Part shown: piece by piece, positions 21,528 to 52,913 of the stretch
How positions within the stretch are numbered: position 1 is the stretch's first letter
Layout: every line of letters starts with the position of its first letter
Source: Spirochaetia bacterium
Lineage (GTDB): Bacteria; Spirochaetota; Spirochaetia; SZUA-6; Bin103
Assembly: GCA_965203905.1 (NCBI GenBank)
Contig: CBDBDQ010000003.1
Coordinates: forward strand, 42,777 to 106,776
Reading direction: 5' to 3'
Length of the DNA: 64,000 nt
The notes under the pieces: model-generated
Told to the model about the DNA's origin: nothing
Database searches by the model: none
Seen by the model: only the letters and a program-made list of their open reading frames with translations
Translations under genes and position numbers: made by a program

Positions 21528-22642
21528 GCACCCTCAGGCACTTTTTTGGCAGGCCGGCAGACTCCCGCAGATCAGGGCATTACGCGGCTTTCACGCCGTC
21601 CTTTCGCCTCGCGGCGCCGACCGTGGACCGCTCGTCGGCGCGCTCGGTGCGCCCCGATAAAGGTCCGTCACTGTGTGCCGTGATCTGTGCGGTGTCCCTT
21701 GCCGGCCAACATGGCCCGGCACGCCGGCATCGAGGCGGAGTTCACCGACGGCGCATCCGCTCGCGGCGCGGCGTTTGACGTGTGCGCGTCAACCGGCGCG
21801 GCTGCGCACCCGGCTCTCGTCGGGATCGCGCCCGGCGGCGCACGGCCGGCGGCTGCCGCTTCCCCCCACCCGCCCGGGCGCTCGCTCACCCCGCGACGCC
21901 GAATCTGGCGGCGCCCCAGCCGGCGCCAGCGTGGGCTCGCCACCCGGCGCGGCACCTACCCACGGCCCGACGCTCGCCCTTCCCCCGTCACTAACCTATG
22001 CTCAGGCCTGCGCTCAGCGTTCAGCGTGGTGCGGTGCGCGTGGTGCTCACGCTCATGGCCATGCGCTCAGCGGTGCGCGTGGTGTGGTGGTAGGGTCAAC
22101 GCCCGTGTCGCTCGCCCGTTCAGCTTCGCGTCATCGACGGGCAGCCCGCCGCCGGACGGCCGCATCCGTCTCCGGCCGTCCGCAGATCCCCCAGGGACCC
22201 CCGGCCACCCCCACCCCGCCCCCCGCTCAGTTCCCGCCCCGCGTTGCGCGCGGGGCTTCATACGCCGGCGCGCGTGCCGGAAAGTTTCTGAAATCCGAGA
22301 AAATGGATCCGGAACTGGGGCCGCAAGGGACCCACCGGCAGAATCTGAAAGTGGAAAGTCAGGGACCCGCGGGAACGGACTCCGGGCGCGGGCTGGGAAC
22401 CAGGGACCTACCAGGGATAGGACTCAAGCCTCAAGGGGATGAGCCGAAGGTAGTGTCCGTTTTTCTGAGAAGTCCGTTGACAGGCGGTGCCGGCACTTAT
22501 ATATGCCGGAGATATGCAAAATTTTGGGAATTAGATCCAATAATAACCAAGGAGGGGCGTCGTGGTGAATGATGCAATGCGACGGGATAGGCGGATGGAG
22601 TTGGTTCGGCAGTTGGCTCTGGAGGGGCGAAGCCCAGGCAGA

Positions 22643-22858
22643 TCAGCATTCTTCTTCGGGTGGCCACCTCTCCCCAAGAACCCAAGCGTAGAAATTCTCG
22701 TCCGTTGTCGCTGCCTGCCATATAGATTCGGCAATTTCAAGAGTGGGTAATAACCGGTTCCCAAGCCGACCTTGTGGCTCTGAGAGAGATCGCATCATCT
22801 CCAACACCTCCTCACAGAAAGCAGCATAGTTCCGATTCTTCAGGGAAGCATGATGCAC
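22643..22858 (-). CDS. hypothetical protein (possibly frameshifted; upstream ATG near 22920)
   Basis: Lower-GC ORF; GGAG RBS upstream of 22920. Confidence 0.35.
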   Translation of the reverse strand: MHHASLKNRNYAAFCEEVLEMMRSLSEPQGRLGNRLLPTLEIAESIWQAATTDENFYAWVLGERWPPEEEC

Positions 22859-23571
22859 GATCCGATGATCAGCCGATGAGCCTTGCCAAGATCCTCTGTG
22901 TCGATGGGCCGGTCAGGCATACGTGATTATTGAGATCTCCTTACCCGTCGGCTTTCGGCGTCACGTGCTTAGCCAGCCGCTTCCCCTTGTTCACTTCTCT
23001 ACTCAGCGACTGATAAGAAGTATCGCCTGCTGCTGGTACATGTGGCTGGACGCATGAACCGCAACAACTGTGTGATGCGGCTGCGGCTGTGTGCCTGTGC
23101 GCAGACCATCGCGCGCATCAGCAGGGTATGGGAGGTGTTTGATCTCCCCACGCAAGCTTCGCGCACCAAGCCCTAGCCGCTAGCGCGCGGGCGCCTTTCT
23201 CTTTCAGCCATTCAACCCCGTTCCCAGTACCACCGTAGGCACCGCCACGCGCCGAGAACTGGCCTGCGGGCGGCTATCGCTGCCTGTGAACGGCCTGCTG
23301 CGCGCTTCTGAGCGTCGTGTTCGCAGCGCAATCTGACTCGGCACCGCCTCGCACCTCTCCGGCGCCAGTCCGCCGGCCTGCTTCATGGCCCGCGGGAGCT
23401 GCCGGCGGCTTCCGGCCGCCTTAGGCGAGGATTTGGGGCCAGGATGTCCGGTTGACACTACGGTCACAATCTGATATGGATACAATGTCGGCGGTCCACT
23501 GGAAGCGACGGACGGTGGCCTATCGGCCTGCCGATCACGGAAGCCATGACTGGTTGGAACGGAGCGCGGAG

Positions 23572-24414
23572 GTGTCTAAGGTGCCGATAGTTGACCTTTC
23601 CAGGGTCGGCGATGCCGCCGTCCTGTTGGTAGACAGGCTGACGGACCCCAACCAGAAGCGAGAGCGAGCCGACGCAAGGGCGTACGCCAAGCAGGCTCGT
23701 ACGAGGTCTGATATCGAGCGACGATCGCTACTCACCGAAGAGAAGGTGAGGGTGTCACGTCAAGAGAACGCCGAACGAATCGCGGCCAAGGCAGCGCGAA
23801 AGGTCCAGAAGAACGCCAGGCCAGATGATGTGTCTCCGGATTGGTACGCCCATGCACGCGAAAGGCTCTGGAACGTGTCGGACGAAGATTTGCAAGAAGT
23901 ATGGGCTCACATTCTTGCTGGTGAGGTCAACTCGCCAGGGAGCTTTTCCAAGCGAACGCTGAGTATCGTTGGGGACCTTGAAAAAAGAGATGCCGAGACG
24001 TTTTCGACCATGTGCAGGTTCTCTGTCACTCTTGCTGATGGAGAGATGTGTCCAACGATCTTTCGCGCAGGTGATCCGATCTACCACGAGGCTGGGATCG
24101 ATTACGATTCTCTTATCAACTTGGCCAGCATGGGTCTTATCAAGTTCGACGGCGTGAGCAACACTTCCTTTACTGTTAGAGGATCGGGGTACTATCCAGC
24201 ATCGTACTTCGGCAGGCGTATCGATTTAGCGATCCCGACAGGCCGCGAAATCCACATAGGGCTAGGGCTGGTAAAGCTATCCAGAGCAGGAGATGAGCTG
24301 TTGAAGATTTGCGCTCTTGTCCCAATCGATGGATATTTTGACTATATCTTGAACGAATGGAAGAGCCTCGGCGCGGAGGAAATCGTCATTCGGCCGCTTT
24401 CCGTGGGGCGGTAG
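23572..24414 (+). CDS. DUF2806-family protein
   Basis: RQENAERI...DW...VSDEDLQEVWAHILAGEVNSPGSFSKRTL. Confidence 0.8.
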   Translation: MSKVPIVDLSRVGDAAVLLVDRLTDPNQKRERADARAYAKQARTRSDIERRSLLTEEKVRVSRQENAERIAAKAARKVQKNARPDDVSPDWYAHARERLWNVSDEDLQEVWAHILAGEVNSPGSFSKRTLSIVGDLEKRDAETFSTMCRFSVTLADGEMCPTIFRAGDPIYHEAGIDYDSLINLASMGLIKFDGVSNTSFTVRGSGYYPASYFGRRIDLAIPTGREIHIGLGLVKLSRAGDELLKICALVPIDGYFDYILNEWKSLGAEEIVIRPLSVGR

Positions 24415-24437
24415 CTGTGGTTACCATCTCCGTGGGC

Positions 24438-24772
24438 ATGGAGCCTCAATTCTCCCTCGTAGACGATTCCGAACCGACAGCACCATCTACCGAGCCCGGG
24501 TTACCAGCCACTCAGCAGCATATGGGAGGGCGGTGACGGGGAGTTGCTCGACGAGATGCTCACCTTCTACCCGGTCATCAAGCCGGACCCGATCCTGGAC
24601 GCCACCTACAACACCGGCCGGATCTGGGCCGGCACCCGCTGGCCGGTCACCAGCATGGACATCGACCCCCAGTACGGCACTGACATCGTGGCCGACAACC
24701 GGGAGATGCCGGGGATAGCCGACGAGTCATACGCAGTGGTGGTCTACGATCCGCCGCACGTCGGACCCCAGG
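24438..24772 (+). pseudogene. truncated amino-DNA methyltransferase
   Basis: ILDATYNTG...DID...VVYDPPH, then lost at the junction. Confidence 0.65.
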
Positions 24773-24774
24773 AG

Positions 24775-24927
24775 GTCTCGGAGATAGTAGAGGGCATAAA
24801 TGCTGCTCTCCCTCGGTGCTTCCTCGTACGACAGGTCAAGGAGCGGGCTGCCTTCGAGCCTCTCGATCACCTGCGCCTTGATGCCTCGGTCCAGGTCGAA
24901 GTCGAATCGGTGCGGGTCGTCTGTCAT
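24775..24927 (-). pseudogene. N-terminal fragment of Eco29kI-like GIY-YIG restriction endonuclease
   Basis: MTDDPHRFDFDL...APRESSIYALYY, truncated. Confidence 0.5.
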
Positions 24928-25073
24928 AGACTGCGGATTGTACGGGCATCCGGGGGTGCCTGCCCAGTCCCGGATGCCGGTCCACCCGCCGACTGACACG
25001 CCAAGCCCGGCAGCATCCTGCGTGTGACTTCGGTATATAATTCCCAAAAGAAAAACAAACTGAGCCTATTGAT

Positions 25074-25841
25074 ATGGGCGTGAAGAAGATACGAAACGAG
25101 TTCCACGAGTATGCCAAGGGACTGGAGAGGATCAAGCGTGACGTTGGGAAAATCATACTGAAGGCTAATTCTCAAACCACGGTAGAGGATCGACTTGAGG
25201 ATATCATTCCGTGTCTAAAGCGTATTCTTGAGCAAGTCGTTTATGGGTGTCTGGTAATTCAGATACCAGTCTACGGGAAAGTGGTTTCTGCTCGTCGATG
25301 GCAGAACAAGAAAGCCAGTGAGCTTGTTAAGATGATAGAACTTGGGTTCTACCCGACTCCGAATCCGGATAAGGCGGGTCCATACATCAAGGTTACTAAA
25401 TCAGTGCGCGATGGCGATGCTCTTACCCGAGAGCAATGGCTTACCGCCTGGGACTTCGCCAACCAGATTCAGCATGTTCAAAATCCCGCCAGTCCTAAAC
25501 GTAAGCCGAATGCGAAGAAATCTCTTGACGATGCTCTGAAGTGGACGCAAAGAACTATCAACTTGCTCAGTTTTCACTACATGATTACGAATGACCAGAT
25601 ATTCTCTGGGCAAGTGACTATGCAGCCGGCCAGCCCATTAGGACCAAGCGCCCAAGTCGCAGTCTTTCAACGTGTAACACCGTGGTCCCCGGTTCAACGC
25701 TTGCCTGATGGAAGTAGGCTCACCTTGCAACGGAACGAGAACGGTGACTGGAAGGATGTTCAAGATCCAAAGGAAGGCGCGATAGCCGTTATGCCGTTTC
25801 ATGGGATCTATACACATCGTGGTTTGGCACGTCAGACCTAG
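25074..25841 (+). CDS. hypothetical protein, low GC
   Basis: 255-aa ORF between two 15-bp direct repeats. Confidence 0.7.
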   Translation: MGVKKIRNEFHEYAKGLERIKRDVGKIILKANSQTTVEDRLEDIIPCLKRILEQVVYGCLVIQIPVYGKVVSARRWQNKKASELVKMIELGFYPTPNPDKAGPYIKVTKSVRDGDALTREQWLTAWDFANQIQHVQNPASPKRKPNAKKSLDDALKWTQRTINLLSFHYMITNDQIFSGQVTMQPASPLGPSAQVAVFQRVTPWSPVQRLPDGSRLTLQRNENGDWKDVQDPKEGAIAVMPFHGIYTHRGLARQT

Positions 25842-26136
25842 GCTGTTTTGATAGCTGTTTTCTGGCAACGAGCTATTGTCGTTTTGCACAAGCTGTGATA
25901 TGCTCTCCGGCATGTCAGAAGACTAGAAACCCAAGCCGCGAGGCCGGCCGCCCACCAAGGACCAGACGGTGTTCGAGCCGTTGAACGTGGACCCGGTGCA
26001 GCTTGCCCGTGCGATGCTGCAACCACGGCCCGAGAGCCGTTCCAAGCCAGACAGTCAGAAGCCGTCCCGGTGAGGGCGATCCTCGTTCGCGGTTACTATT
26101 CGATATAATTCCCAAAATTTTATCGACGTTGGTCCG

Positions 26137-26409
26137 GTGATCACAGTCATCGACATGCCGATAGAGACGGTAGAGGACAACATCGACCGCGTGCTCGCTA
26201 AGTCCGGTGTAGCGGGCTTGTCTGACAGAAACGATCTGCGATGGGCCATCCTGCAGACGGCTCTGGACTTTGCAGATTCAGAGGACTTGCGAATCCCTGA
26301 CCGCTGGCGGCTGGATCTGCTTCTTCTGAAATGGAAGGGTGGACACCAGGACCTATGGCGGGCAGATCGGCAGGGGTCCCCGTGCCCACCGCAATCAGCC
26401 TGCTCGTGA
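26137..26409 (+). CDS. hypothetical protein or fragment
   Basis: ORF after TATAAT-containing repeat. Confidence 0.4.
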   Translation: MITVIDMPIETVEDNIDRVLAKSGVAGLSDRNDLRWAILQTALDFADSEDLRIPDRWRLDLLLLKWKGGHQDLWRADRQGSPCPPQSACS

Positions 26410-26598
26410 GACCATCTTCCCAGCATCAGAATCCCCGTCCATCGTGATCCACGCTTCACCAACTCCGGGTCCGGGTTCGGGGGAGAGTTGAGAATAGGGC
26501 TGCGTGGCGATTTCTGCGATCAACCATCTATATCCCCTTGACCGATTCGGCGAGCGGTGAGCATACTTCACCGCATGGCGATTTTAGACACTGCCGCA

Positions 26599-26895
26599 AT
26601 GGAGCGGCTGACCATTTCGCTACCGCGTGAGTTGCGGGCGAAGCTGCAGCGGATTGCGCGGGACCACGGCGCCAGCGAGGCCGCGGTGATTCGAGCAGCG
26701 CTGGAGTTTGGGGTGCCGGAGCTAGAGAGGCAGTTGCTTGCCGAGGCGACCAGCGGGCCGCGGTTCGACTACTCCAAGTCACGCCGCGGGCCGCTGGAGC
26801 TGGCGCGGCCGATCCTGGAGCAGCACGAGACCGAGGCCGACCCGCCGCCCGAGAACGTGGCGGAGGCGGAGGACCATCAGACGCCGGCGGAGTGA
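26599..26895 (+). CDS. ribbon-helix-helix (CopG-like) regulator
   Basis: MERLTISLPRELRAKLQRIARDHGASEAAVIRAAL. Confidence 0.8.
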   Translation: MERLTISLPRELRAKLQRIARDHGASEAAVIRAALEFGVPELERQLLAEATSGPRFDYSKSRRGPLELARPILEQHETEADPPPENVAEAEDHQTPAE

Positions 26896-27091
26896 AACGG
26901 GCTGCACGAGCGGGTAGCTCACTTGGCCGGAGTACCAGGAGACGCATTTGCTGCCGCCCTGGGGCGGGTGCCCGCACCGAGTTGGGGGAGGTGCGCCGGG
27001 CACACCTCCGGTTCCCCAGCGCTCGCCCCCCCTCGGGAATCACCGCGCGGCACCGAGCGCCTGCTGGCGGCAAGTCGCCGAGTGATTTGCC

Positions 27092-27119
27092 ACTTCCGAT
27101 AACTGTGGTTCTGTCGTCC
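27092..27119 (+). other. dif/Xer-like site S1
   Basis: ACTTCCGATAA-CTGTGG-TTCTGTCGTCC. Confidence 0.7.
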
Positions 27120-27191
27120 TCGGGATCGCCGCTTGCCTACGCCGTGGATCCCTCCCCCCTGAAGCCGCCGGCCGTGATAACGGTGTCCGGC

Positions 27192-27501
27192 ATGAGCACC
27201 GCCCTGGAAATCCTGATTGGTGCCGGCGGCACGGTGGCCGCCTTGCTGGCCGTGCTGCTGCCGGTAATCCGGGCGCAGGGCTCAAACCTGCGCCGTTGAG
27301 CTGGATATACGCTACGCGGGGACCTGCGCGCCGATGTGGCATCGTTTGCGCGCCGACGTGGGCGAAGTGCCGCGACCTGCACGCGCTGAGCGATCGTGTG
27401 GCCCGCATCGAGGGTGCGCCTACGACCGGCCCTGGCGGCCCACCAACGGCTCGCCTGCAGCGGCACCCCAGGGCGGTCCCCCGGAGGCCACCGCCGAGTG
27501 A
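27192..27501 (+). pseudogene. decayed small TM/coiled-coil gene (...DRVARIEG...)
   Basis: MSTALEILIGAGGTVAALLAVLL..., frameshifted; 3' part duplicated at 28770-28877. Confidence 0.5.
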
Positions 27502-27507
27502 CCTGCC

Positions 27508-27531
27508 ACTTCCAGAGTGCTTCTGTTCACT
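27508..27531 (+). other. dif-like site S2 (4-bp deletion in left arm)
   Basis: ACTTCCA-GAGTGC-TTCTGTTCACT after CGCCGAGTGACCTGCC. Confidence 0.55.
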
Positions 27532-28067
27532 GCGATCACCACCGCAAGCTGAGTTCCCCGTACGCGCGCGCTGCCCATACGAAGGCATTGACCAAGTTTT
27601 CGTAGCGGCGGTAGAGTGGCGTTCTAAGTGGCGGGGCTGTAGCCAGGTAGCAACTGACCAGGCCCGATACCAAACGTCAAATCGCCATCGCGGGCGTCGG
27701 CGTCCATACAGTGTGTGCTGCATACGGATGCGCGGGTCGCGCTGCTCGGTTGCATCAAAATGCAGGCGCGTGGGTTGACCCTGCGGGGCGCAGGGTGGTA
27801 GGGGGTTTGCCTATGCTGGCAATAGTACTGGCAATCGTAGGTGCGCTAATCGTGGTTGCAATTGACGTAGTGGTACGTTACCTGCAGTCCGATGATAGCC
27901 TACACAGCAGGCGGAAAGGACGGCTTTAAGTTCCGGTTGCAGGAACGCTGGCGCCGGCCCGGCGACTGCGCTATGGGTCCGATGCGTGTTGTGATGCTGT
28001 TAGTGGTGGGCTCGCCTGCAGCGGCACTTGCGGCGCCAGTCGAGGATGGTGACGCTGTTGGCCCGCA

Positions 28068-28733
28068 ATGGAGGGTGTACCATACACAGTGGCTCGCGAA
28101 ACTATCAATCCAGATCACCAGAGCGCGTACCCGTTGCTCTTTTTGAATGTGATTCACTTCAAGGACGCAGCACGGTTAGTCGAGTCGGAGGTTTCCAGGT
28201 ATCGCGCTGACCAGGGCTTGCAACATACCGAGGATCCTTTGGAGAGTTTTCCTAACAAGGACTATTGGATGTCAGCAAAGGCCGTATCACACTTTAACCT
28301 TGGAACTGCGTTGGAACTAATGATGAAGTTGGTTTTGGTTATCAACGGTACACCGGTTGGACAGACGCACTCACTGCTTGCACTGCACAATTCTCTGTCA
28401 TCGAAGTGGAAACGACGCATGCAGGAAATGTTCAGCAAGGCAGAGAAGAATCATGGATTGTTAAAGTTTGTCCGAATTAGGCGTTCTGATGCGGCTGATC
28501 TACCAGATCCCGGCGACGATCGTGACGTCATCGGGTTGAGAGGTACACTGGCGTACCTTGACGATGATGCTGTGCTGTCAAAGGCGCGATACCTATGGAA
28601 ACATATGAGTGAAGGTAAGTGGCTGTACTACTTGGATGACATTACAATTCTTACCGACTTAATTGATCAGGTATTAGCGAAACTAGTTGCAGAGAACCAG
28701 ATTCCTGGACTGACGGTAGGGAAGCAAGACTAA
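28068..28733 (+). CDS. HEPN-like protein
   Basis: FNLGTALELMMK...THSLLALHNSL...RY pattern; low GC. Confidence 0.6.
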   Translation: MEGVPYTVARETINPDHQSAYPLLFLNVIHFKDAARLVESEVSRYRADQGLQHTEDPLESFPNKDYWMSAKAVSHFNLGTALELMMKLVLVINGTPVGQTHSLLALHNSLSSKWKRRMQEMFSKAEKNHGLLKFVRIRRSDAADLPDPGDDRDVIGLRGTLAYLDDDAVLSKARYLWKHMSEGKWLYYLDDITILTDLIDQVLAKLVAENQIPGLTVGKQD

Positions 28734-28883
28734 ACCTTTGGCCCTGGCACCCACGCCAGACTTGTAGAGGAGCGCGTTGCCCGCATCGAGGTGCGCTGAG
28801 CGGCCCCTGGCGTCCCACCAAACGGCTCGCCTGCAGCGGTGCCCAAGGGTGGCACCTCGGAGGCCACCGCCGAGTGACCTGCC

Positions 28884-28911
28884 AATTCCTATTAGACTGC
28901 TTCTGTCGCCT
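28884..28911 (+). other. dif-like site S3
   Basis: AATTCCTATTA-GACTGC-TTCTGTCGCCT. Confidence 0.65.
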
Positions 28912-28960
28912 GGAGCGCTGTGCTGGTTCACTTTCCGCCGGATTGATCGTCGAAATTAGG

Positions 28961-29845
28961 TTAGGGCGCTTGGTACGGAACGGACAGCATTACGGATGCC
29001 GGCACCCCTTCGGGCCTGCCCTTCGTCCGGGCATCGAGTTGCCGTTTCTCCAGTTGGGTCAAGTACGTCCGGCGTAGATCGTTCGGAGTAACCGGGTCGA
29101 CGCCCGCCTGCTTGGCGATGGTGCGCACCCGATCCATCACCGCCTGGGCGGTCATGGCCTTCGGCTGGAGCTTTTCGCCCTTGGCAACCGGGCACAGCAG
29201 GGCTCCGGGCCAGTCGCCGCGGCGCGCGATCCAGGCGCCGATCGCTTCCTTGCCGCCGTCTGTCGCGTAGACCTGCCGCTCGTCGTGGCGAATGACGATG
29301 GCCCCGGACACCTGGTCGTAGTCCGCGAGCTGCAGCGCGGCTGCTTGCGAGCGCTGCAGGTCGGCGCAGTAGAGTAGCGCGAGCATGGCTGCATCACGGG
29401 CGCCGATAAGATCGGTACCAAGCGCCGCGAACAAGCGGCGAACCTCGTCCCGTTGGACGTATCGTCCTGCACGCCGGCGCGGCTGTGGCTTCTCGTTCCG
29501 TTGGTCCTCGACAGCGATCCGCGTCTTGTCGTCGACCAGCCCGAGTTCCCATGCTATGCGCACCGTACTCCGGACCCCCGAAAGCATGTGGTTGACGGTG
29601 CCGGCGGCGACGCCGCGGTCGAGCATGACCGAACGCATTTTTTGGACCTGCTGCAGGTCTATCTGCGACCAGTCGAACGCCGTCGCATCTGTGACGGCGT
29701 CGTCCGTGAAGATTGCCACTGCGCAGTCGAGTTCCCGTTCCATGCCGAGGCGTCCGGACGGGTGGAGGCGGTCGAGATAGACGGCAGCGGGATTCTGTAC
29801 TGGCGCGGTGTTGCTGGGCGCGACCGACTCGTCCGCGGCTTGCAC
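28961..29845 (-). CDS. tyrosine-recombinase paralogue lacking catalytic residues (copy 1)
   Basis: Homologous to 13503..14567 but LQRSQ, NDLRR, no GKGRK loop, no GH...Y segment. Confidence 0.85.
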   Translation of the reverse strand: MQAADESVAPSNTAPVQNPAAVYLDRLHPSGRLGMERELDCAVAIFTDDAVTDATAFDWSQIDLQQVQKMRSVMLDRGVAAGTVNHMLSGVRSTVRIAWELGLVDDKTRIAVEDQRNEKPQPRRRAGRYVQRDEVRRLFAALGTDLIGARDAAMLALLYCADLQRSQAAALQLADYDQVSGAIVIRHDERQVYATDGGKEAIGAWIARRGDWPGALLCPVAKGEKLQPKAMTAQAVMDRVRTIAKQAGVDPVTPNDLRRTYLTQLEKRQLDARTKGRPEGVPASVMLSVPYQAP

Positions 29846-29855
29846 TTTGGCAGCT

Positions 29856-30254
29856 TCAGAAGCTCGCTACTGTGGCGGTCGACAAGCTCTGCCTTCCGGT
29901 AAGACTGCAACCTATCTCCGATTTTAGAAGAGTTCCTGCTCTCGTCTCTTCACCTCCGATAGCACGTTCGCGGCAGCTTCCCTCTCTACCAATAGAGAGA
30001 TGATTTTGCTCATTCGTAGGCAGCTCGAGGCGCTCCCGAGATTCCTCCACCGAAGCAGGGAATCGTTTGTACGCGACGATAGCGGCATGTCCATCATTGA
30101 CCACTTGTATGCTATGCGGGATGGCTTGGGAAGCTCGATACAGTTTTCCCCGAAATTGGTTGCACTTCTCCTCAAGGCTCGCCAACCGGTTTTCTGCCCG
30201 CCTCAGTTCCAGTAACAGATCGGCCATGTTTCTCTCGCGTTCGTCGTTGCTCAT
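29856..30254 (-). CDS. hypothetical coiled-coil protein (3' end uncertain, possibly truncated at S4)
   Basis: MSNDERERNMADLLLELRRAE...; low GC. Confidence 0.45.
   Translation of the reverse strand: MSNDERERNMADLLLELRRAENRLASLEEKCNQFRGKLYRASQAIPHSIQVVNDGHAAIVAYKRFPASVEESRERLELPTNEQNHLSIGREGSCRERAIGGEETRAGTLLKSEIGCSLTGRQSLSTATVASF
29892..29908 (+). other. dif-like half site S4
   Basis: CCTTCCGGTAA-GACTGC then unrelated sequence. Confidence 0.5.
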
Positions 30255-30403
30255 CGCTTCATCCTTTAGCTATCTTCTGAGGATCGCGGTCTTGAATACG
30301 ATGGGTATTGACTCTGATCAAATGGCAGGTCACGACCAATAATCAGTGCGTCTCCTACAATATGATCTCAGCAGATATTGGAATGTGGCGGCTTCAGGCC
30401 GCC

Positions 30404-31384
30404 TCATTTCTTATAGCCTACGAGACGCACCTCTGTCAACGCGGTACTTCGACTTCCGATAATCCGCTTCTGTCCCCTGGGAGCGCCGTGTGGTTTCACC
30501 CCCCGCTGGCTTGATTCTCGGATTTTGGCGCTTGGTGCTGAACGGATAGCACCCCTTCGGGCCTGCCCTTTCGTCCGGGCGTCGAGTTGCTTCTTCTCCA
30601 GCTCGGTTAAGTACGTCAGGCGTAGATCGTTCGGGGTAACCGGGGCGACGCCCGCCTGCACTGTGATGCTGCGCACCCGCACCATGACGGCCTGGGCGGT
30701 CATGCCCCGCTGTCGGATGCGTTCGCCCGTACCGACGGGCGCCAGGAGTGCGCCCGGCCAGTCGCCACGGATCGCGATCCAGGCGTGGATCGCTTCCTTA
30801 CCGCCATCTGTCGCGTGGACCTGCCGCTCGTCGTCGCGAACGGTGACGGCCCCGGACACCTCGTCGTAGTCCGCGAGCTGGAGCGCGACTGCTTCCGAGC
30901 GCTGAAGGCCGGCGCCGTAGAGCAATGCAAGCAAGGCTGCATCACGGGCGCCAATTGGATCGGTACCGGGGGCCGTCGCGAACAGGCGCCGAACCTCATT
31001 TCGTTTGACGTATCGTCCTGCACGCCGGCGCTGTTGCGGTTTCTCGTTCGGTTCGTCCTCGACAGCGATCCACGTCTTGTCGTCTACCAGCCCGAGTTCC
31101 CAAGCTATGCGCACCGTACTCCGGACACCCGAGAGCATGTGGTTGACGGTGCCGGCTGCAGCGTTGCGGTCGACCATAGCCGAACGCAGCTTTTCGACCT
31201 GCAGCCGGCTTATCTGCGACCAGTCGAACGCCGTCGCGTCTGTGCCGGCTTGGTCAGTGAAGATTGCGACCACGCGGGCGAGTTCCCGGCGCATGCTGCG
31301 GCGCCCCGACGGGAGGAGGCCGTCGAGATAAACGGCGGCGGGATTCTGGTCGCTGGGGGCGTCCGACTCGTCCGCGGCTTTCAC
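30404..31384 (-). CDS. tyrosine-recombinase paralogue lacking catalytic residues (copy 2; C-terminal frameshift relative to copy 1)
   Basis: GLQRSE, NDLRL, no GH...Y; close paralogue of 28961..29845. Confidence 0.85.
   Translation of the reverse strand: MKAADESDAPSDQNPAAVYLDGLLPSGRRSMRRELARVVAIFTDQAGTDATAFDWSQISRLQVEKLRSAMVDRNAAAGTVNHMLSGVRSTVRIAWELGLVDDKTWIAVEDEPNEKPQQRRRAGRYVKRNEVRRLFATAPGTDPIGARDAALLALLYGAGLQRSEAVALQLADYDEVSGAVTVRDDERQVHATDGGKEAIHAWIAIRGDWPGALLAPVGTGERIRQRGMTAQAVMVRVRSITVQAGVAPVTPNDLRLTYLTELEKKQLDARTKGQARRGAIRSAPSAKIRESSQRGVKPHGAPRGQKRIIGSRSTALTEVRLVGYKK
30452..30478 (+). other. dif-like site S5 (5-bp spacer)
   Basis: ACTTCCGATAA-TCCGC-TTCTGTCCCCT. Confidence 0.65.
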
Positions 31385-32108
31385 TTCGGCAGATCCAGAA
31401 GCTCGCTGCCGTGGCCGTCGACAAGCTCTGCCACCGTCTCGGTATCCCACTGTTCTCTCGAAAGCACCATGCCCGGCTTCGGATCCAACGCGGCCGCGGA
31501 GGCCGCGGCCGCCGGGACAGCAGACGCCGTAACAGGCCCGCGGTGTCGGCGATGCCAACGACGACAGCATCTCGCGGGTCTGGAATGTCGTCGCTGAACA
31601 GTACCGCCAGTTATACGCCGCTTCACGTCCCGGTCAGCGGCGAGATCGGCGGTCGGGTACCGCGGCGATGGGAACACCCACAGGAGAACCGCCCCTCGCG
31701 GCGTTGGAGAATGCCCTCACTCGACGATACGTTCCAGTACACAGGCGCGGATGCGCTGGCCTTGATCGGCCGTATGCCGCACTCAGTAACGGGTGTCCCG
31801 CGCCTCTGACGCCTGTGCGATTTACGCGAGTGTCGGATCGAGAAGGTCTGGCGCAGGCGTCGCATCGGCCACGAAGAGCTGTTCGGTCCATGAGAACCGC
31901 ACCCGCCAAGGGAGTAACGCAACGACCAGTCGGGCACCCGCGCGAACTACCAGCTTTCGGCATCCGCCAAGAGCCGCACTACGTAAATCTTGGTTTGGGC
32001 GGGCGGTTCGCAAAGCGCGCTTGGCCGAGCCGATGGAGACATTTGGTCACCACCTGTCAGCGTTCACTGTGTTCCGACCGGCGCCGTGGGCCTCCTCTCG
32101 GTTGGACA

Positions 32109-33902
32109 TTAGTAACCCATTGCTTTCTTCAGTTCATGATCGACCCAAAGTCGACTGAATACAACGTTGTATTGCCCTCGACCTAACGAGGTCTCCCCAT
32201 TAAAACCCTTGATCCACGGCTGGACTACAGCAAACCGTGGCGCGATCGGACCAAACAACATCCAATAGCTATCGATACTATTCTGACCCAACTCTCTCAT
32301 GATGGCGTTCTGCTCCTCGGCAGTAACCGGCTCGACACGTCGCTCCGCATCATCAACCACCGAATAGGTATGCAATGTATTCTGTATCCAGTCCGCGACA
32401 TCAAAAGGGATCCCCTTATGTGCGGCCACCGCACTTATCATCTCGAATTCTCCCCTCTCTAAACGGTGATTATATCCTTCCTTGTCCAACATGACAACTT
32501 CAGCATCTACGTCGATCCCACTCCAGTATTCGGAAAGCAATTCCAGGTATTGCAAATCGAACACTCCTGAAGAAACCAACTCAGTCCGAAAGCCATCTGG
32601 ATATCCTGCCTCGATGAGTAGCTGTTTGGCGCGATCACGATCAAATCTATAGCCGTCCTTCACCGGATCGCTCCACTCTTCGAATGGAACGATTGCTTCT
32701 GCAAGCGTCCTACTAAACAGTCCTTGCGGAACTGTGTCTGCATGACCGCCGTACAACCTGTCGTTGGCCTGCTCAACATCTATCGCCATCTGCATTGCCA
32801 TTCGCACTCTAATATCGCTAAATGGCGCGCGCTGAGTGTTTATCCCAACAGCATTCTCTGACCGTACGTAAAACACATGAGGCATGAGATGTCGGTGCTG
32901 GACCAGAAAGCCCTCAAGAACATGAAGGTCTTTTAGTTGAGAGTTTCCGATAGGACCAACGTAATCTATCTTTGCCGTACTAAGCGCTGCCAGACGGCTT
33001 TGCTCGTCCACAAGAACGAGCGCCCTCAACTCATCGATATACGGCAAACGTCTGTTGTCCGCATCGAAGCCCCAGTAGTTGGGATTTCTTAACCAAGTAA
33101 TCGAGCTTCCTTCTACCCAGTCAGTCAGAACAAACGGGCCGGTTCCTAGGAGATTCTTCCAATCCGCTACATCACCGAACTCTTCGATAACCTCCGGCGG
33201 ATATATCCAGGAGCTCCAGCCGTCGAATAAAAGGCGGAACGCGTGAGGATTAGGCTCCTCTAAACTGAACACAACTGTGTATCTGTCGGTTGCCTCGACA
33301 GATGCAAAATTCAGTCGATTTATGTCATACTTCAGTTTGTCATCGCCGAGACCTAAAATGCGATGGAAGTTGTATGCGACATCATAAGCGGTAAGTTCGC
33401 GTCCGTTAAGTGGCGCCTTGTCATGCCATTGAACCTCCCTACGAACACTGACAACGTAAGTTCGCGGATCACGCTGCTCCCAGCTCTCCGCCAAGGCACC
33501 GGCTGTGTGCTCCTCGTGGTTGAGCACCTGAAAGTCGAAAAGGTCGCGTCCTAACGCCCAGTTTGCAATTCCCAGTTTCTCAACAACTCCCGAAATGTAG
33601 ATATACGCAAATTGAGAAAGGAGCATATCAGTACCTCTGTTATTGTGTGCTAGAGCGAACGTGATTACACCGCTGTGATTCACCGTTGTCGGGTCCCATT
33701 CGCATGGCGATGAACAACGCCAATTGCAGCAGTCCGTAAAACAAGCATCCGACGAGCAGTAGACACCGTCATCGCGCTCCTCATCGCCGCTTGCACACAA
33801 TACGGTGGTCACACAGAAAAAACATGCAACAAGAGCCGTCTGAGTGTTATTCAGCAGAAATCTCATCGAGAAACTAGGATGATCCGCCATCATTATACAC
33901 AC
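32109..33902 (-). CDS. orphan ABC transporter substrate-binding protein, family 5 (start uncertain)
   Basis: LAESWE, WHDKAPLNGRELTA, GTGPF, PFSDIRVRMAM, AKQLLIEAGYPDGF; lower GC; no permease nearby. Confidence 0.88.
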   Translation of the reverse strand: MCIMMADHPSFSMRFLLNNTQTALVACFFCVTTVLCASGDEERDDGVYCSSDACFTDCCNWRCSSPCEWDPTTVNHSGVITFALAHNNRGTDMLLSQFAYIYISGVVEKLGIANWALGRDLFDFQVLNHEEHTAGALAESWEQRDPRTYVVSVRREVQWHDKAPLNGRELTAYDVAYNFHRILGLGDDKLKYDINRLNFASVEATDRYTVVFSLEEPNPHAFRLLFDGWSSWIYPPEVIEEFGDVADWKNLLGTGPFVLTDWVEGSSITWLRNPNYWGFDADNRRLPYIDELRALVLVDEQSRLAALSTAKIDYVGPIGNSQLKDLHVLEGFLVQHRHLMPHVFYVRSENAVGINTQRAPFSDIRVRMAMQMAIDVEQANDRLYGGHADTVPQGLFSRTLAEAIVPFEEWSDPVKDGYRFDRDRAKQLLIEAGYPDGFRTELVSSGVFDLQYLELLSEYWSGIDVDAEVVMLDKEGYNHRLERGEFEMISAVAAHKGIPFDVADWIQNTLHTYSVVDDAERRVEPVTAEEQNAIMRELGQNSIDSYWMLFGPIAPRFAVVQPWIKGFNGETSLGRGQYNVVFSRLWVDHELKKAMGY

Positions 33903-34711
33903 CTATAATATGATCATTATCGATTCGAAGTACCTTGGGGGCGTCATTTTTGTTCTTGCCATACCAGTTGTAGACTAACAGAAATGTGTCATAGGGGCCC
34001 CGCCATAGTAGACTAATTTTAGCGTCAAGAGGGTATCTCTGTATCATACGAAAGAGACGACCGAATTCAGTGTTAGGAACGGACGTAAGGTCGTCTGAAA
34101 TGCTCGTTCTAAAAAGGACTTCGACGGCGGTTGGATTCTCATCTGTCAACTTCTAAAAAAGCCTGGTAATGCCCCGCTCCTTTTGAAATGAAGTAGGCAG
34201 AATAAAACAATAGAGACCACATACATATCTTCAACACCAATTTACCGGTAGTGGAGCAAAACGGGCGCCGTAGCGGATGTTGTATACTGCACCGTCTCTT
34301 GGCAAAGAACAACCAGTAAGCCAGACAATACAGAACCAAGAAGCACAATATAACGCCCATTCCGAGAAATACGTACATGTACACATCCCGAATACTAAGA
34401 TCCGGTAATCTTCCTATTACGGAAAAGGTATGAACGAATACGGTGTAGTCATTCGTGGTAAGGCTCGATCGCGGCACACCAAACCGAGCGAAGTACTCAT
34501 TCCGATACCACCAGCCGGAAAAGTAGATGAGTGCGAGAAGAAATAGCCAGTCGGTTGGTGTTGTTCGTCTCACGGAATCGTGCCCGCATAGACGACGTCT
34601 ATTCATCTGTAATATGTAGCGTCGTCCTCTTCGAAAAAGCCGTCTTGGGGGATTGCTCCAGAATGGGGAGTCGCGATGCCGTGCTTGATCAGCCGCAGTA
34701 GATTCTCTCAT
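33874..34711 (-). CDS. hypothetical membrane protein in two frames (34139..34711 and 33874..34149)
   Basis: TM segments (LALIYFSGWWYRNEYFARFGV); low GC. Confidence 0.5.
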
Positions 34712-34804
34712 CAGTGATTCTAAGCTTAGCCGTGTTGGGGAGATTCGTCCAGAGGTCGACGGTTCGTCAAGAGCAGTGTGGATCCCACCGCCGAGTGACC
34801 TGCC

Positions 34805-34832
34805 ACTACCGATAATTCACACTCTGTCGCCT
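34805..34832 (+). other. dif-like site S7
   Basis: ACTACCGATAA-TTCACA-CTCTGTCGCCT after CGCCGAGTGACCTGCC. Confidence 0.7.
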
Positions 34833-35317
34833 CACCCCGCGGGGGGATCGCCGCGAGCCTTGACCCCGTGGCACCAGTCGAGGATGGTGACGCCTGTGAC
34901 CACGGACGAATGGGAGTGGAACTTGACCGGGTGACGATGCGGCAGATAGCGATCCGCGTAGGCCACAGCTGGACCAGTTCTACTACTTCCACCTGGACGA
35001 GTATGAGGTCTACCGGCGCTGGGAGAGAGTGCTGAAACGTCGCGCAGCAGCGATTGAGCGAGAACACGACCGGAGCGCGGCGTTCGCCGAGGCAGCCCAC
35101 GCCAGCCGGACTTCCGGTAAGACTTGGCCGGTCGGCCAAATTTGAACGGCACGACTCATGAAGGACTTCTGGCCGAATTCTGTTCAGGCAGCGGACCCGG
35201 AAAGCGATCGCACGGCGCCAGCTCGCCGGTGCATAGGGGACGCGGCACCGTGACGCGAGCGCAAAAGCGCGCTCGGGACGCCGCCGAGCAGGCTTACGCC
35301 GAACGCACCTTGATTGC

Positions 35318-36130
35318 TTGCGCGCTACGCGACTTCGAGGCAGCCCGGCGACTACCCCGCGCGTCCACCCGTTGATGTTCGTGTCGCCGGAGCGCGGGCG
35401 CTGCTGGGCGGCGCTGACCCTGGTGGCGGAGAGGAACACCCCCGCGCCACCGCCTCCACACTTGCTCGCCGCGGTGGGCGCCGAGCTCGCCGACGATGCG
35501 CCCGGCGTGGCCGCCTTACGCGGCGTCCCGGTGCACCGCGCCGAGACGCTCGACGGCACCTACTTCGCCCACCGCGTGGCCGACGCGCACAAGCGCCGAG
35601 TGTGGCGCCGGCGGATACGCAACGCGCACCGGTACGACTGGGGTTATGACTGGCGTGAAGCGCAAGCCGAGGCGCATAGGCGATCCGGCGCCAAGGCCGG
35701 GAATATCGCCAGCCAGTGTGCTGCAGATGCGGACCGCCGCGACCTGGCGCCGCTCTACCGTGCTGATGCCGAGCACCACGCTGCCGAGGCCGAACGGCTG
35801 GAGCGCGACGTAGCGGCCGCGCGCGCCCAGCGCCTCCTAGTGCGCCGGCGGTGGCGGATCGCGGGCCGGATCGCGGGCCGGATCGCGGGCGGTTGCGGCG
35901 CTGTGCTGCTGGTGCTGACGTTCGTGTCGCGCTGGCATTTGGACCTGCGCCGCGTGGTCAGCACCCCGTTGTCCGGTTTCGTGGTAGTGGCGTTCCTGGT
36001 AGGTGTCTTCCTGGTATCGTTCGGCGCCGAGGAAGGCGACCGGCGGTTCATGCTGGGCGGTGCGCTGCTGGCCGTGGGCGCGGCGGCACTGTTCGGCGCT
36101 TGGTGGTGCTGGTGGTGGTGCGCTCGATGA
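35318..36130 (+). CDS. hypothetical membrane protein
   Basis: Three C-terminal TM helices; 12-bp GGATCGCGGGCC (RIAG) x3 microrepeat. Confidence 0.5.
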   Translation: MRATRLRGSPATTPRVHPLMFVSPERGRCWAALTLVAERNTPAPPPPHLLAAVGAELADDAPGVAALRGVPVHRAETLDGTYFAHRVADAHKRRVWRRRIRNAHRYDWGYDWREAQAEAHRRSGAKAGNIASQCAADADRRDLAPLYRADAEHHAAEAERLERDVAAARAQRLLVRRRWRIAGRIAGRIAGGCGAVLLVLTFVSRWHLDLRRVVSTPLSGFVVVAFLVGVFLVSFGAEEGDRRFMLGGALLAVGAAALFGAWWCWWWCAR

Positions 36131-36219
36131 ACGACTCAGCCTACGCGGTAGCGCGCAGCGTCCGGTAAACGGGTGTTCTGCGAGGCTTGACGCCGCGCCA
36201 GTCGAGAATGGTTACGCCT

Positions 36220-36600
36220 GTGAGGGCTGACCGGCCGGGCGGCACCGTGCCCGCACCCGAGTACATCGAGACGGCCGACTACTTCGCCAAGGCGCTTGAG
36301 CTGTGCGGCCCCGGTGCCTGGATCACAGTCCAGGGTGCCATCCAGGTCATGCTGCAAATCGGTTGGAACACCATCGTCAAGGAGAAGGAGAAGGCAGTCT
36401 ACTCTGCGGTCTACAAGAGGATGCGGAAGACCAGGCGTCATCCAGCGCTCGCGTTGCCGATCGACATGAGCCGCAGCCGCGACGGCCTCTGGTGTAACCG
36501 TCCGGCTCTCTCGCTGCCACTTCCGGGAAGGCAATTTCTGACTACATGCTTCGGCGTCAAGGGGATACCTTCGCCAAGCGTCGCACAACGGCCAGAGTGA
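36220..36600 (+). CDS. hypothetical winged-helix-like protein, paralogue of 1..358
   Basis: ETADYFAKALELCGPGAWITVQGAIQVMLQIGW...KAVYSAVYKRMR...LALP. Confidence 0.55.
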   Translation: MRADRPGGTVPAPEYIETADYFAKALELCGPGAWITVQGAIQVMLQIGWNTIVKEKEKAVYSAVYKRMRKTRRHPALALPIDMSRSRDGLWCNRPALSLPLPGRQFLTTCFGVKGIPSPSVAQRPE

Positions 36601-37342
36601 TGCGCGCATCGCCAGCGGCGCTGTGTGCATCAGAAGTCGGCACACCCCTGCACTCGGCGGCCTCTTCCAGATTCGACCATGCCGTGTCCCGGCCATGAGT
36701 GTCCGCCTCAGCTTGCATCGCACAGCGCCAGGGCACTGCCGGTAGTATCATCCCGTGGCGCGCGGCGGTCTGTTCCAGCATGCTCCGGTCAAACTCGGCG
36801 TTCCAAGCAATCACCGACGAGGCATTTTCCAACAGCCGCGCCAACTCGGCGTGTACTGCGGGCCATGGCCGTGCTCCCATAGCCCGCAGTCGTGCACGGG
36901 TCAACCCGTGCACATCGCTGGCATCGCGTGGGATCGGCCCTTGCGGCAGACTCACGGTATTGAGAAGCACACACCCCGTGGTGTCGATCACGGCCACCTC
37001 CAGCACTTCGCTACGCCGGCCCAATCCGGTAGTCTCCGTGTCGATTACAAACACATCTCTACGATCCAGCAGCTCCCCAAGTGTCTCGGCCTGCCAAGGT
37101 GCTCGCGCCTTGCGTGAGTCCTGCGAAGCAGCCCTGACCGGCTCCGGGTCAGGGGACGGCGCGGGGGTGGGTTTCGGGCTAGGTTCGGATGAATCCCAAG
37201 GGATCCCGCCTGATTTCCAAGGTGCCGTCGCCCGTTGTGCCGGAGTACTCGTAGGCTTCACCTGCCGCAAGGCAGACCGGGTGAGCCCATAGAGCAGTAG
37301 CACGAATCCACCCAGGATCAACACGCTAAGGACTATGCCCAT
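36557..37342 (-). CDS. DEDDh 3'-5' exonuclease with N-terminal TM anchor
   Basis: VIDTETTG, AWNAEFDR, HSAAGDA. Confidence 0.9.
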   Translation of the reverse strand: MGIVLSVLILGGFVLLLYGLTRSALRQVKPTSTPAQRATAPWKSGGIPWDSSEPSPKPTPAPSPDPEPVRAASQDSRKARAPWQAETLGELLDRRDVFVIDTETTGLGRRSEVLEVAVIDTTGCVLLNTVSLPQGPIPRDASDVHGLTRARLRAMGARPWPAVHAELARLLENASSVIAWNAEFDRSMLEQTAARHGMILPAVPWRCAMQAEADTHGRDTAWSNLEEAAECRGVPTSDAHSAAGDARITLAVVRRLAKVSP

Positions 37343-41335: not shown

Positions 41336-41620
41336 TCAACCCGCGTGCTCGGCTGGCGGCATGCCGAAGTGCTGTTCGATGTCGCGACGCAGGTCGCTGA
41401 CGCGATCGTCAACGTCGTCGATCTTGCGCCCCAGAAGGCTGAACTTGTGATCCATCCGCTTCTCGAAGGCGGTCATCCGTCGTTCGACTGCCTCAATCCG
41501 GCTATCCATCGCGTCCAGCCGGGCTTCCATCGTGTCCAGCCGGGCTGCAATGGGTTCCAGCGCGGTCGTGATCGCGTCTTGGATGATGGTCTGGAGTTCG
41601 TGCCGCTCGGTCTCTGTCAA
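41336..41620 (-). CDS. small coiled-coil protein
   Basis: Heptads RLDTMEA/RLDAMDS/RIEAVER. Confidence 0.55.
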   Translation of the reverse strand: MTETERHELQTIIQDAITTALEPIAARLDTMEARLDAMDSRIEAVERRMTAFEKRMDHKFSLLGRKIDDVDDRVSDLRRDIEQHFGMPPAEHAG

Positions 41621-41649
41621 ACCTGCATGATCGGCGCACCACTCACCCC

Positions 41650-43383: not shown

Positions 43384-43854
43384 TCAGAGTGCCCAAGGGT
43401 GTGGAATGAACTTCGTCTCGGTCATGAGACGGCGCTCCGCGGCCGTCAGCAGTACCTCTTTGCGGTCCAGCTCCTTCCGCAGCCATTCCTTCTCCGCGCG
43501 CAGCTCCGCATTCTCGATGGTGAGGGTTGCGTCACGATCGCGCAGCTCGGCGTTCTCAGCGCGTAGACGGGCAGCTTCGCGTGCATCTGACTGAATAGCA
43601 CGCTGCATCTCTTCGCGGTGAGCCGGGTGCATCCCAGCCGCCCCGCCCAGGATCGCATTTTGAGTGAGCAACATCCCGGATACTCCCAGCACAGCTTGCC
43701 TCTTGGCCATCTCTCCAGCCATGTTACCCAGCACAGCTTGCCTCTTAGCCATCTCTCCAGCCATGTTACCTATCACAGCTCGCCGCTCTGCCATCTCTCC
43801 AGCCATGTTACCTATCACGTAGCTGAACAACCCTCCGCGTACCGAATCACTCAT
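43384..43854 (-). CDS. hypothetical protein with 3 x 14-aa (42-bp) tandem repeats and coiled coil
   Basis: GNMAGEMA(E/K)R(R/Q)AV(I/L) x3. Confidence 0.6.
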   Translation of the reverse strand: MSDSVRGGLFSYVIGNMAGEMAERRAVIGNMAGEMAKRQAVLGNMAGEMAKRQAVLGVSGMLLTQNAILGGAAGMHPAHREEMQRAIQSDAREAARLRAENAELRDRDATLTIENAELRAEKEWLRKELDRKEVLLTAAERRLMTETKFIPHPWAL

Positions 43855-47522: not shown

Positions 47523-48190
47523 GCCACGAACAACTGTTGTCCGAAATCAAAGAACTACAGAGATTTCACATAGGACTATCATGCGTCGAAAAGAAAGATA
47601 GTGACACCTATATCTCTGGACCATTACCGTTCTATGCTCACTACGGCGATCGAGAATCCATTGCATCGTGCTTCGATGTCTCACTGTGCATAGATAAGTC
47701 GTATCCAGAAGTCCTGCCCGTAACCCGCGAAATCGGAGGAGCTATCAATGAATCATACCGACACGTGAATGATCACGGCACGCTTTGCCTGAGCGTTCCA
47801 GTCGAGGAGCGTCTTATATTTGGCGAGGAGCCGTCGCTTCTAGGCTATGTTAACCGTCTCTTGATCCCATATCTCTACGGTTACCGATATTGGGAGAAGC
47901 ATGGAACGCACCCATTCGGAGAACGGGCACACGGCGAGGACGGAGTAGTCCAATTCTACGTAGAGGAGTTCGGTCTTAAAGACGAATCGAAGGTAGTGGA
48001 CTTCCTAATGTTCCTTTGTACACACGGATATGAAGGGCGTCTTCCGTGTCCATGTGGTAGCGGAGACAGGCTCAAGAAGTGCCGCCATGGAAAGGTGCTA
48101 CGTAGATTGGATCAACATCACATACGGAAGGCTGTACGGACGGATCTCGGAAGAATCATAGCACGTCGTAGCATCACGGACAGCGGATAA
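47510..48190 (+). CDS. E2 ubiquitin-conjugating-like protein with C-terminal SEC-C motif (CBASS ancillary)
   Basis: YPEVLP, HVNDHGTLCL, PFGERAHG, PCPCGSGDRLKKC. Confidence 0.82.
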   Translation: MELLSHEQLLSEIKELQRFHIGLSCVEKKDSDTYISGPLPFYAHYGDRESIASCFDVSLCIDKSYPEVLPVTREIGGAINESYRHVNDHGTLCLSVPVEERLIFGEEPSLLGYVNRLLIPYLYGYRYWEKHGTHPFGERAHGEDGVVQFYVEEFGLKDESKVVDFLMFLCTHGYEGRLPCPCGSGDRLKKCRHGKVLRRLDQHHIRKAVRTDLGRIIARRSITDSG

Positions 48191-52160: not shown

Positions 52161-52208
52161 TTTGTCACCGCCTCAGAGGGCACCCAAGCGTCTCACCGAT
52201 CGTTGCAC

Positions 52209-52907: not shown

Positions 52908-52913
52908 CGTAGA

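Follow-up and report, generated by a model that had tools for sequence, protein, structure and literature searches.

Introduction

Catalytically dead members of enzyme families often prove to be regulators. To our knowledge, only a few cases of dead regulators among tyrosine recombinases have been worked out, for example MrpR and TnsF. Here we analysed a 64,000 nt stretch of DNA (hereafter, the window) from a Spirochaetia bacterium (GenBank assembly GCA_965203905.1, contig CBDBDQ010000003.1), corresponding to C3:42777-106776 in a genome (G000) of 7.99 Mb in five contigs. The window carries two paralogous genes, copy 1 and copy 2, which derive from a Xer-like tyrosine recombinase, lack its tyrosine nucleophile and lie between short recombination sites. 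With moderate confidence, and judging from sequence comparisons, we favor the reading that this dead recombinase is under constraint and would be kept as a non-catalytic site-binding subunit, carried by a mobile cassette of ~1.1 kb.

MrpR (YopR), the master repressor of Bacillus phage SPbeta, is described as having a tyrosine-recombinase fold, having lost recombinase function and acting through a repeated DNA element to which it binds (PMC10516654). As a phage regulator it is present in one copy, and its Tyr and Lys are retained, whereas in the dead gene of the window the Tyr segment is deleted and the gene occupies a multi-copy, site-flanked cassette; no sequence similarity between the two was detected among solved structures. 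In TnsF of Tn6022-like Tn7 elements, an inactivated tyrosine-recombinase domain is reported to have been co-opted for the choice of DNA sites, and an active relative, Tsy, is known (PMC10293859). TnsF has an N-terminal zinc-finger region of ~200 aa and Tn7 partners, whereas the dead protein has 294 aa with no N-terminal extension, and no Tn7 families were found among the 30 annotated open reading frames (ORFs) of the window. The domesticated Crypton recombinase genes of eukaryotes are likewise described as retained after loss of mobility functions (PMC3212892); they are host genes, whereas the dead recombinase here is the gene of a mobile cassette.

Site-flanked units that are moved by a recombinase they do not encode have been described as pdif modules and IMEX (PMC7399989; 10.64898/2026.06.12.731946). 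As described, these use the host dif machinery and carry no recombinase relative, whereas the unit in the window carries a dead paralogue of the presumed enzyme as its cargo. The locus also resembles an integron: short cassettes of one orientation, with a site at the end of each, have built up next to a platform that bears a recombinase. An integron was rejected: the integron-integrase model TIGR02249 gave 17.4 and 23.6 bits for the two copies and 80.5 bits for the intact paralogue, where the cut-off is 265; an intact recombinase is found no closer to the site than 10-13 kb; and the first site is the end of a gene. What we take to be the conserved outer motifs of attC are absent from the aligned sites, as seen by direct reading.

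XerC and XerD are related to the dead protein across both domains (PF00589 and the Xer NCBIfam models), the closest solved structures being XerA of Pyrococcus abyssi (4a8e) and XerD (1a0p), and an imperfect inverted core site with a spacer and a conserved C-terminal tail are shared features. Unlike XerC and XerD, the dead protein has no nucleophile, Lys loop or first His, and its target is the end of a small gene, not the chromosome dimer-resolution site. Inactive DNA binders with a recombinase fold are already known; what is new here is a multi-copy, site-flanked cassette with a dead paralogue as its only gene.

Results and discussion

Copies 1 and 2 share the same active-site lesions

The intact Xer-like tyrosine recombinase gene of the window (positions 13503-14567, minus strand) is the last gene of an SSB/RadC string. 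Its 354-aa product matched PF00589 at 105.2 bits and has all six catalytic residues, read from the alignment as R174, K200, H267, R270, H293, and Y302. Copy 1 (28961-29845, minus strand) encodes a nucleophile-less derivative of 294 aa and is the sole fully open copy in the genome. Copy 2 (30404-31393, minus strand) has the same lesions and ends in a foreign frame at 30404; the ATG at 31570, formerly taken as its start, was replaced by the homologous start, a GTG at 31393. Both copies matched PF00589 above the cut-off of 27.1 (42.4 bits for copy 1 and 44.9 bits for copy 2), and the matches ended at profile position 148 of 172, whereas that of the intact paralogue reached position 167. The amino-acid identity to the intact protein was 47% for copy 1 and 43% for copy 2, and the two copies were 77% identical to each other in protein and 81-88% in DNA. 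An earlier note, made from the letters of the window alone, had called both copies homologous to the intact recombinase at 13.5 kb, and the profile matches, the identities and the motifs it listed, which are visible in the alignment, bear it out. The cut-offs of the XerC and XerD equivalog models (TIGR02224 and TIGR02225) are 335 and 330 bits; the scores were 58.8 and 63.8 bits, and the intact paralogue, at 148.5 bits, was below them as well.

The alignment revealed that LRRSE of the intact protein is replaced by LQRS(Q/E) in both copies, that a 12-nt deletion has removed four residues of the GKGRK loop, that PHDLR has become PNDLR, and that the GH...Y segment of ~23 residues is absent. In the catalytic set of R, K, H, R, H/W and the Tyr nucleophile, the second Arg alone is kept throughout; the dead protein retains in addition the conserved Glu, its C-terminal tail and the greater part of both domains. 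The tail of copy 1 (RPE...L.VPY) is present, and copy 2 carries an extra A at 30569-30571 (a +1 frameshift) plus a 15-nt deletion, with its tail lost. The alignment thus confirms the loss of the lysine loop, the H-to-N change in HxxR and the deletion of the GH...Y segment in both copies, as well as the L.VPY tail of copy 1, all of which had been read from the letters. The statement that the two frames stay open over ~290 codons holds for copy 1, but the homologous frame of copy 2 has only ~274 codons. Without the Tyr nucleophile, the Lys loop and the first His, the product of either copy cannot cut DNA. A split gene completed elsewhere was considered and rejected, since the deletion is internal and the tail is kept.

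Might the conserved Tyr of the tail substitute as a nucleophile? It lies 33 residues past the second Arg, against 32 for the true nucleophile of the intact protein, and it is nearly invariant in the dead clade described below. Nevertheless, we consider such a residual enzyme highly improbable: the protein has neither the Lys loop nor the first His nor the His/Trp position, its first Arg is variable, the intervening segment is Pro-rich, and the DNA alignment shows the tail to be homologous to the intact tail and not to the Tyr helix.

The dead gene is the sole cargo of a site-flanked unit

A search of the genome with copy 1 gave 17 matches. Three are intact-type genes, and the rest are six near-full dead copies and fragments. 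All six near-full copies lack the same 12 nt of the loop and the same Tyr segment, and, to judge from the DNA alignment, they share a single origin. BLAST with copy 1 and its flanks showed that homology between copies spans from ~50-90 nt before the start codon to a repeat ~75 nt past the stop codon. Each dead gene is the sole cargo of a ~1.1-kb unit enclosed by two sites in direct orientation, and homology between copies breaks at a shared GGCAG core. A 13-nt core pattern matched the window 5 times where 0.42 was expected, a count not attained in any of 100 shuffles. The repeat past the stop codon occurs ~13 times in the genome, and a scan with a 25-nt core gave 13 matches at up to six mismatches, one of which looks like chance. 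This repeat is the 3' end of a small membrane/coiled-coil gene, with the TGA inside the core, plus ~35 nt downstream. The earlier note had placed each copy between dif-like sites; the flanking sites are real, but their likeness to dif was not borne out, and they are copies of the small-gene end.

The upstream and downstream sites of each copy are unlike each other. Upstream of five of the six copies lies site U, a diverged full-length site, followed by a cassette-specific right half and then by the start codon, 30-50 nt downstream of the site. Site U had five matches in the genome, all of them beside dead genes only. The arms of the sites do not resemble one another, and the spacer of U departs from the canonical one in its last two positions. 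In the window, site U lies upstream of copy 2 (31411-31477, minus strand; GGCAG at 31428-31432), and the same arrangement was found at four other dead loci (three near-full copies and one fragment). Copy 1 is the exception: at its recombinant upstream junction (29878-29915, minus strand), a canonical left half is joined at GGCAG (29889-29893) to the cassette-specific right half, with the start codon 43 nt farther on. A boundary of repeat family D3 at 29893 matches this junction.

Downstream, a whole canonical site follows copy 1, C5_1915 and C5_5361 (the last two being copies outside the window, on C5), and a left half only, diverging at or just after the core, follows copy 2, C5_4799 and C5_5354. 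Site D of copy 1 (28846-28912, minus strand, with the 25-nt core at 28870-28894) lies ~75 nt beyond the stop codon, at the point where the dead gene converges with the small-gene end. The half-site downstream of copy 2 (30452-30477, minus strand) diverges from the canonical site at the core. A 13-nt inverted match at 30321-30333 was set aside as possibly due to chance (one mismatch, no flank similarity). A promoter scan of 28700-31800 returned no sites, and the three terminator-like signals there, against 2.1 expected, are uninformative.

The unit thus occurs in several contexts, its homology breaks at the core, and it has no active recombinase of its own. Since the junctions are as expected from site-specific exchange at one core, we read it as a non-autonomous cassette that moved after catalysis had been lost. 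Such a spread needed a recombinase acting in trans, because the product has no Tyr, Lys loop or first His. The link between dead genes and recombination sites, for which the earlier note had suggested a test, is shown in this genome by the flank alignments and the breaks at the core.

The arrays are stacked at the end of a small gene

At up to three mismatches, the 25-nt core was found eight times in G000 and once each in G001 and G006, and it was absent from the other 38 genomes. The single site of G001, like that of G006, lies across the stop codon of a small membrane/coiled-coil gene that is full length (82 aa in G001), and these genomes represent two sister species with a native single-copy site. 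The small gene of G001 is ~10 kb upstream of, and divergent from, an intact-type recombinase gene, and the same relative order is seen in the window.

In the window, a canonical site just after a ribbon-helix-helix gene (27078-27102, plus strand; C3:69854) has two mismatches to the 25-nt core. A frameshifted remnant of the small gene follows (27192-27501, plus strand), with its stop codon inside the core of the site that overlaps it (27494-27518, plus strand; found by the core scan). The array is closed by a canonical site with one mismatch (34791-34815, plus strand). On C4, the small gene is full length; three more sites lie beyond it, separated by unrelated genes. Four sites in the window share one orientation, as do the four that lie downstream of the small gene on C4. 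The arrays are stacks of insertions at the 3' end of the small gene.

The C4 array (L191, G000:C4:43000-54000) contains ORFs of 139, 300, and 311 aa. Two cassette-like genes between sites of the window (28068-28733 and 29856-30254) have a lower G+C content, and neither matched a Pfam family (two tested).

The dead protein belongs to a clade with common lesions

In the protein search, the best 120 of 229 matches were listed, and among these at least 55 proteins had at least 54% identity to copy 1, one of them being copy 2 of the window itself. At least 94% of the query was covered by 26 of these 55. All aligned full-length members share the loss of the loop, the change of the His, the loss of the Tyr segment and an end of the form ...MLSVPYQAP. 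By contrast with its conserved neighbors and the VPY tail, the position of the first catalytic Arg varied among 35 dead-clade proteins (16 Q, 11 R, 4 K, and 4 L), which suggests that this position was freed while the fold was kept. The R-to-Q change, present in both copies of the window, is hence not a signature of the family. The mean column conservation was 0.79 in the dead clade and 0.78 in the intact clade. The same residue is conserved in both clades at 81 columns, and at another 33, mostly in the N-terminal half and the linker, both clades are conserved but differ.

A tree of 47 proteins, built by a quick search with support from the Shimodaira-Hasegawa-like approximate likelihood ratio test (SH-aLRT) only, recovered the dead clade as monophyletic (SH-aLRT 100), with P0123 (97) and P0051 (93) as successive sisters; next beyond P0051 come an active protein and then the intact clade. 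A search for a clade marked by LQRS and NDLR had been suggested, and a monophyletic clade with the same lesions exists, although the LQRS part varies within it. P0123 has a mutated loop, a His-to-Thr change and a truncation at 264 aa, with no tail. P0051, a full-length frame, has lost the second Lys, keeps the His and the tail, and has a larger deletion of the Tyr segment. Both sit on long branches before the crown of the clade, and their states suggest that the active site decayed stepwise along a lineage that kept its frame.

Beyond this clade, 55 of 233 adequately covered proteins had no Tyr at the nucleophile column, ~38 of them in the dead clade. Six of the remaining Tyr-less proteins were aligned, and four of these (P0257, P0201, P0208, and P0216) are full-length frames outside the dead clade that have lost several catalytic positions and kept a VPY or VPF tail. 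This suggests that catalysis was lost repeatedly in this Xer-like subfamily.

The coding frame is under moderate purifying selection

The ratio of nonsynonymous to synonymous substitution rates (dN/dS) was estimated by the Nei-Gojobori method between paralogues of one genome, a comparison subject to gene conversion and to the bias of the method. Between copy 1 and copy 2, dN/dS was 0.45 (bootstrap 95% confidence interval 0.30-0.67; dS 0.31; 255 shared codons). Copy 1 gave 0.46 against C5_4799 and 0.23 against C5_1915. The internal branch to copy 1 and C5_1915 had a dN/dS of 0.42 (0.23-0.81; distance fit), and the terminal branch of copy 2 had one of 0.46 (0.27-0.82). The three intact paralogues gave 0.25-0.30 over the folded 290 codons. 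In a six-frame control, the annotated frame gave 0.45 with no stops, the antisense frame that mirrors third positions gave 0.57, and the other four gave 1.06-1.32; this control also led us to reject an antisense ORF as a real gene. Since catalysis was lost, purifying selection on the coding frame has thus been moderate, and somewhat weaker than on the active enzymes.

A decaying relic is a less likely reading of the record

The data can also be read as a relic: a once autonomous mini-integrative element, consisting of an integrase and an attachment site, would have lost catalysis and be decaying, its frames still open by youth or gene conversion. We regard this as somewhat unlikely, although several results point toward it or away from the favored site-binding subunit. 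Four of the six near-full copies are frameshifted or stopped, and copy 2 also lacks its tail. A one-base insertion disrupts C5_1915, C5_4799 combines a one-base deletion with a TAG, and C5_5354 and C5_5361 have several defects; some of the single-base indels lie in short homopolymers and could be assembly errors. The one-base insertion of the C5_1915 type, with linked variants, was also present in public contigs of X1 and X3, which are one sample. Read contigs over 25000-37000 are short, and their joints at repeats have short sides and could stem from other copies, so that they do not bear on excision. Many database members are truncated as well: 29 of the 55 listed proteins cover less than 94% of the query, among which broken genes and contig ends are not distinguishable, and a library clustered at 50% identity held one full-length cluster (P0005) and 14 fragment clusters, with the other matches at 52% identity or below. 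The comparison of C5_5354 with C5_5361, both broken, still gave a dN/dS of 0.60 (0.41-0.88), so that part of the selection signal predates the decay, and the value of 0.45 itself indicates that constraint is looser than on the active paralogues. Of the 41 genomes searched, G000 alone had the dead type. No excision footprint of U and D, that is, a U left half joined to a canonical right half, was found in the genome at up to six mismatches. Some island segments of C3 and C5 are 95-98% similar, just as copy 1 and C5_1915 are (96%), so the likeness of these two copies need not mean a recent move.

The sites raise a separate difficulty for the favored reading. No site adjoins an intact recombinase gene, the distance being ~13 kb in the window and ~10 kb in G001, and G006 has the site but no close intact-type gene. 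For these reasons, the intact paralogue is only the presumed enzyme of the site.

The search for dead-type loci elsewhere was also negative. Among relatives' genome contigs (best 80 of 154), no dead-type locus was seen and the best identity was 43%; among metagenome contigs (best 80 of 296), none was seen and the best identity was 47%. L101 matched through to the tail, but it is of the active type. A plasmid search gave 639 records, all below 60% identity. Among the sequencing runs listed, none was an RNA run carrying the sequence. An ungapped junction of the copy 1 type had no genome match at up to six mismatches.

Several observations are hard to reconcile with mere decay. In the annotated frame dN/dS is 0.45, whereas the remaining five frames range over 0.57-1.32, and the internal branch leading to copy 1 has a value of 0.42. 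Two partly degenerate sisters on long branches precede the crown of the clade, and the tail and most of the fold are conserved while the first catalytic Arg drifts. Moreover, the copies reached different contexts after inactivation. The earlier conclusion that the copies are not simple pseudogenes and would encode a non-catalytic DNA-binding partner is therefore upheld in part, by the dN/dS between them and by a clade sharing the lesions, and qualified by the decay of copy 2 and the four broken copies. Copy 1 is likely the working copy, and copy 2 is decaying. If the product acts in trans, one working copy per genome would be enough, which would explain the decay of most copies.

A site-binding role is proposed for the dead subunit

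The nucleophile-less product is probably a site-binding subunit, either a helper or an inhibitor, as far as sequence can tell. The cassette, bounded by the diverged U and the canonical D, is inserted in the site array at the 3' end of the small gene. In the helper model that we favor, the dead protein would recognize the diverged sites of its own cassette and join a synapse with the active paralogue, in which dead subunits would hold the cassette-specific arms and active subunits would perform one pair of strand exchanges. Such a synapse would favor integration or hinder excision. In this enzyme family, heterology of arms or spacer would limit a complete two-step exchange. The C-terminal helix of a bacterial tyrosine recombinase is described as docking in trans into the neighboring subunit (PMC3646895), and by analogy the shortened, Pro-containing tail of the dead protein may dock likewise.

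A brake or repressor fits the same data as this helper. In that case, the dead protein would occupy sites or poison the active tetramer, blocking recombination or repressing neighboring genes, and would be kept for the benefit of the island or the host. The selection and conservation data apply equally, and the position of U, 30-50 nt before the start codon, would allow autoregulation. Eight sites in this genome, against one each in G001 and G006, which have no dead gene, would fit arrays that have been stabilized, with only three genomes compared. MrpR is described as a recombinase-fold repressor (PMC10516654). Truncated transposases that act as inhibitors in other elements would offer a further parallel. 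Yet a pure blocker leaves the spread of the cassette to at least six places after inactivation unexplained, no operator-like repeats were identified beyond the recombination sites, and no sequence relation to MrpR was found among solved structures at E values up to 1e-5. We consider a brake quite unlikely.

The site-binding subunit could also be part of something broader, which we put forward as a doubtful but attractive extension. In such a two-component system, the nucleophile-less paralogue would be both the targeting subunit and the sole cargo of a selfish cassette that hijacks the active recombinase of the island, and pseudo-recombinases of this kind would have arisen repeatedly among Xer-like enzymes. 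If the dead protein does steer or restrain its active paralogue, it would show site-specific recombination splitting into a targeting and a catalytic part, the growth of cassette arrays outside integrons, and a non-autonomous element that pays its way by a binding protein alone. For a bench test, the locus provides a defined kit: a native site and two derived ones, together with one dead and one live protein.

The cassettes sit on a large integrative island

Collinearity of C3 with C5:1.893-1.962 Mb, C5:4.748-4.817 Mb and part of C4 is patchy. C3 and both C5 regions are alike in having a gene for a 435-aa recombinase at one end and an intact Xer-like gene after an SSB/RadC string, and the dead cassettes lie 15-31 kb from there on C3 and in both C5 regions. 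The cassettes thus sit on a large integrative island that also bears the intact paralogue. Its annotated content includes SSB, RadC, VapE, a cyclic-oligonucleotide-based antiphage signaling system (CBASS), McrBC and a methylase, and the window also holds transposases. The label of integrative and conjugative element was set aside in favor of integrative island, as no conjugation genes were seen among the annotated content.

Several features of the island and its surroundings were recorded in passing. A low-G+C stretch at 45302-48190 encodes a patatin-like phospholipase, a SMODS/DncV-like nucleotidyltransferase and a third ORF, and by its gene content it looks like a CBASS defense operon. More defense cargo lies at 49048-54626, where a McrBC-like pair (a McrBC component and an AAA_5 ATPase) precedes an N6 methylase that has a TaqI-like specificity domain. 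The VapE-like gene (11154-12157) is in two adjacent ORFs, suggesting a frameshift. Between 31-nt inverted repeats that are 90% complementary, a lower-G+C stretch of 3.6 kb (22518-26121) contains a DUF2806/Abi_alpha-like gene together with a 255-aa ORF that belongs to no known family. This stretch is possibly an insertion element or a different kind of cassette.

Repeats of several kinds were also found. A repeat of ~0.6-1.5 kb (57012-57635 and G000:C3:28093-29559) occurs in ~45 places on C5 at 82-95% identity and flanks both edges of the island-like region of C3, beside genes for family-5 solute-binding proteins. The IS110-family transposase gene at 41941-43227 lies within a segment (41618-43383) that has a 99.8% identical copy at C5:668353-670118. 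A gene at 2481-3278 has 15-nt periodic repeats in 31 registers, which we take to be of the pentapeptide-repeat type, and it adjoins a 925-aa collagen/LapA-like gene (3669-6446) with internal 339-nt repeats. A 42-nt unit is present in three tandem copies at 43685-43818 (84-94% identity). No Rfam family matched anywhere in the whole window. Elsewhere on C5, three sets of three adjacent tyrosine-recombinase genes were observed (G000:C5:5306185-5308537, 6315647-6317999, and 2711398-2713842), which presumably resemble recombinase-in-trio elements.

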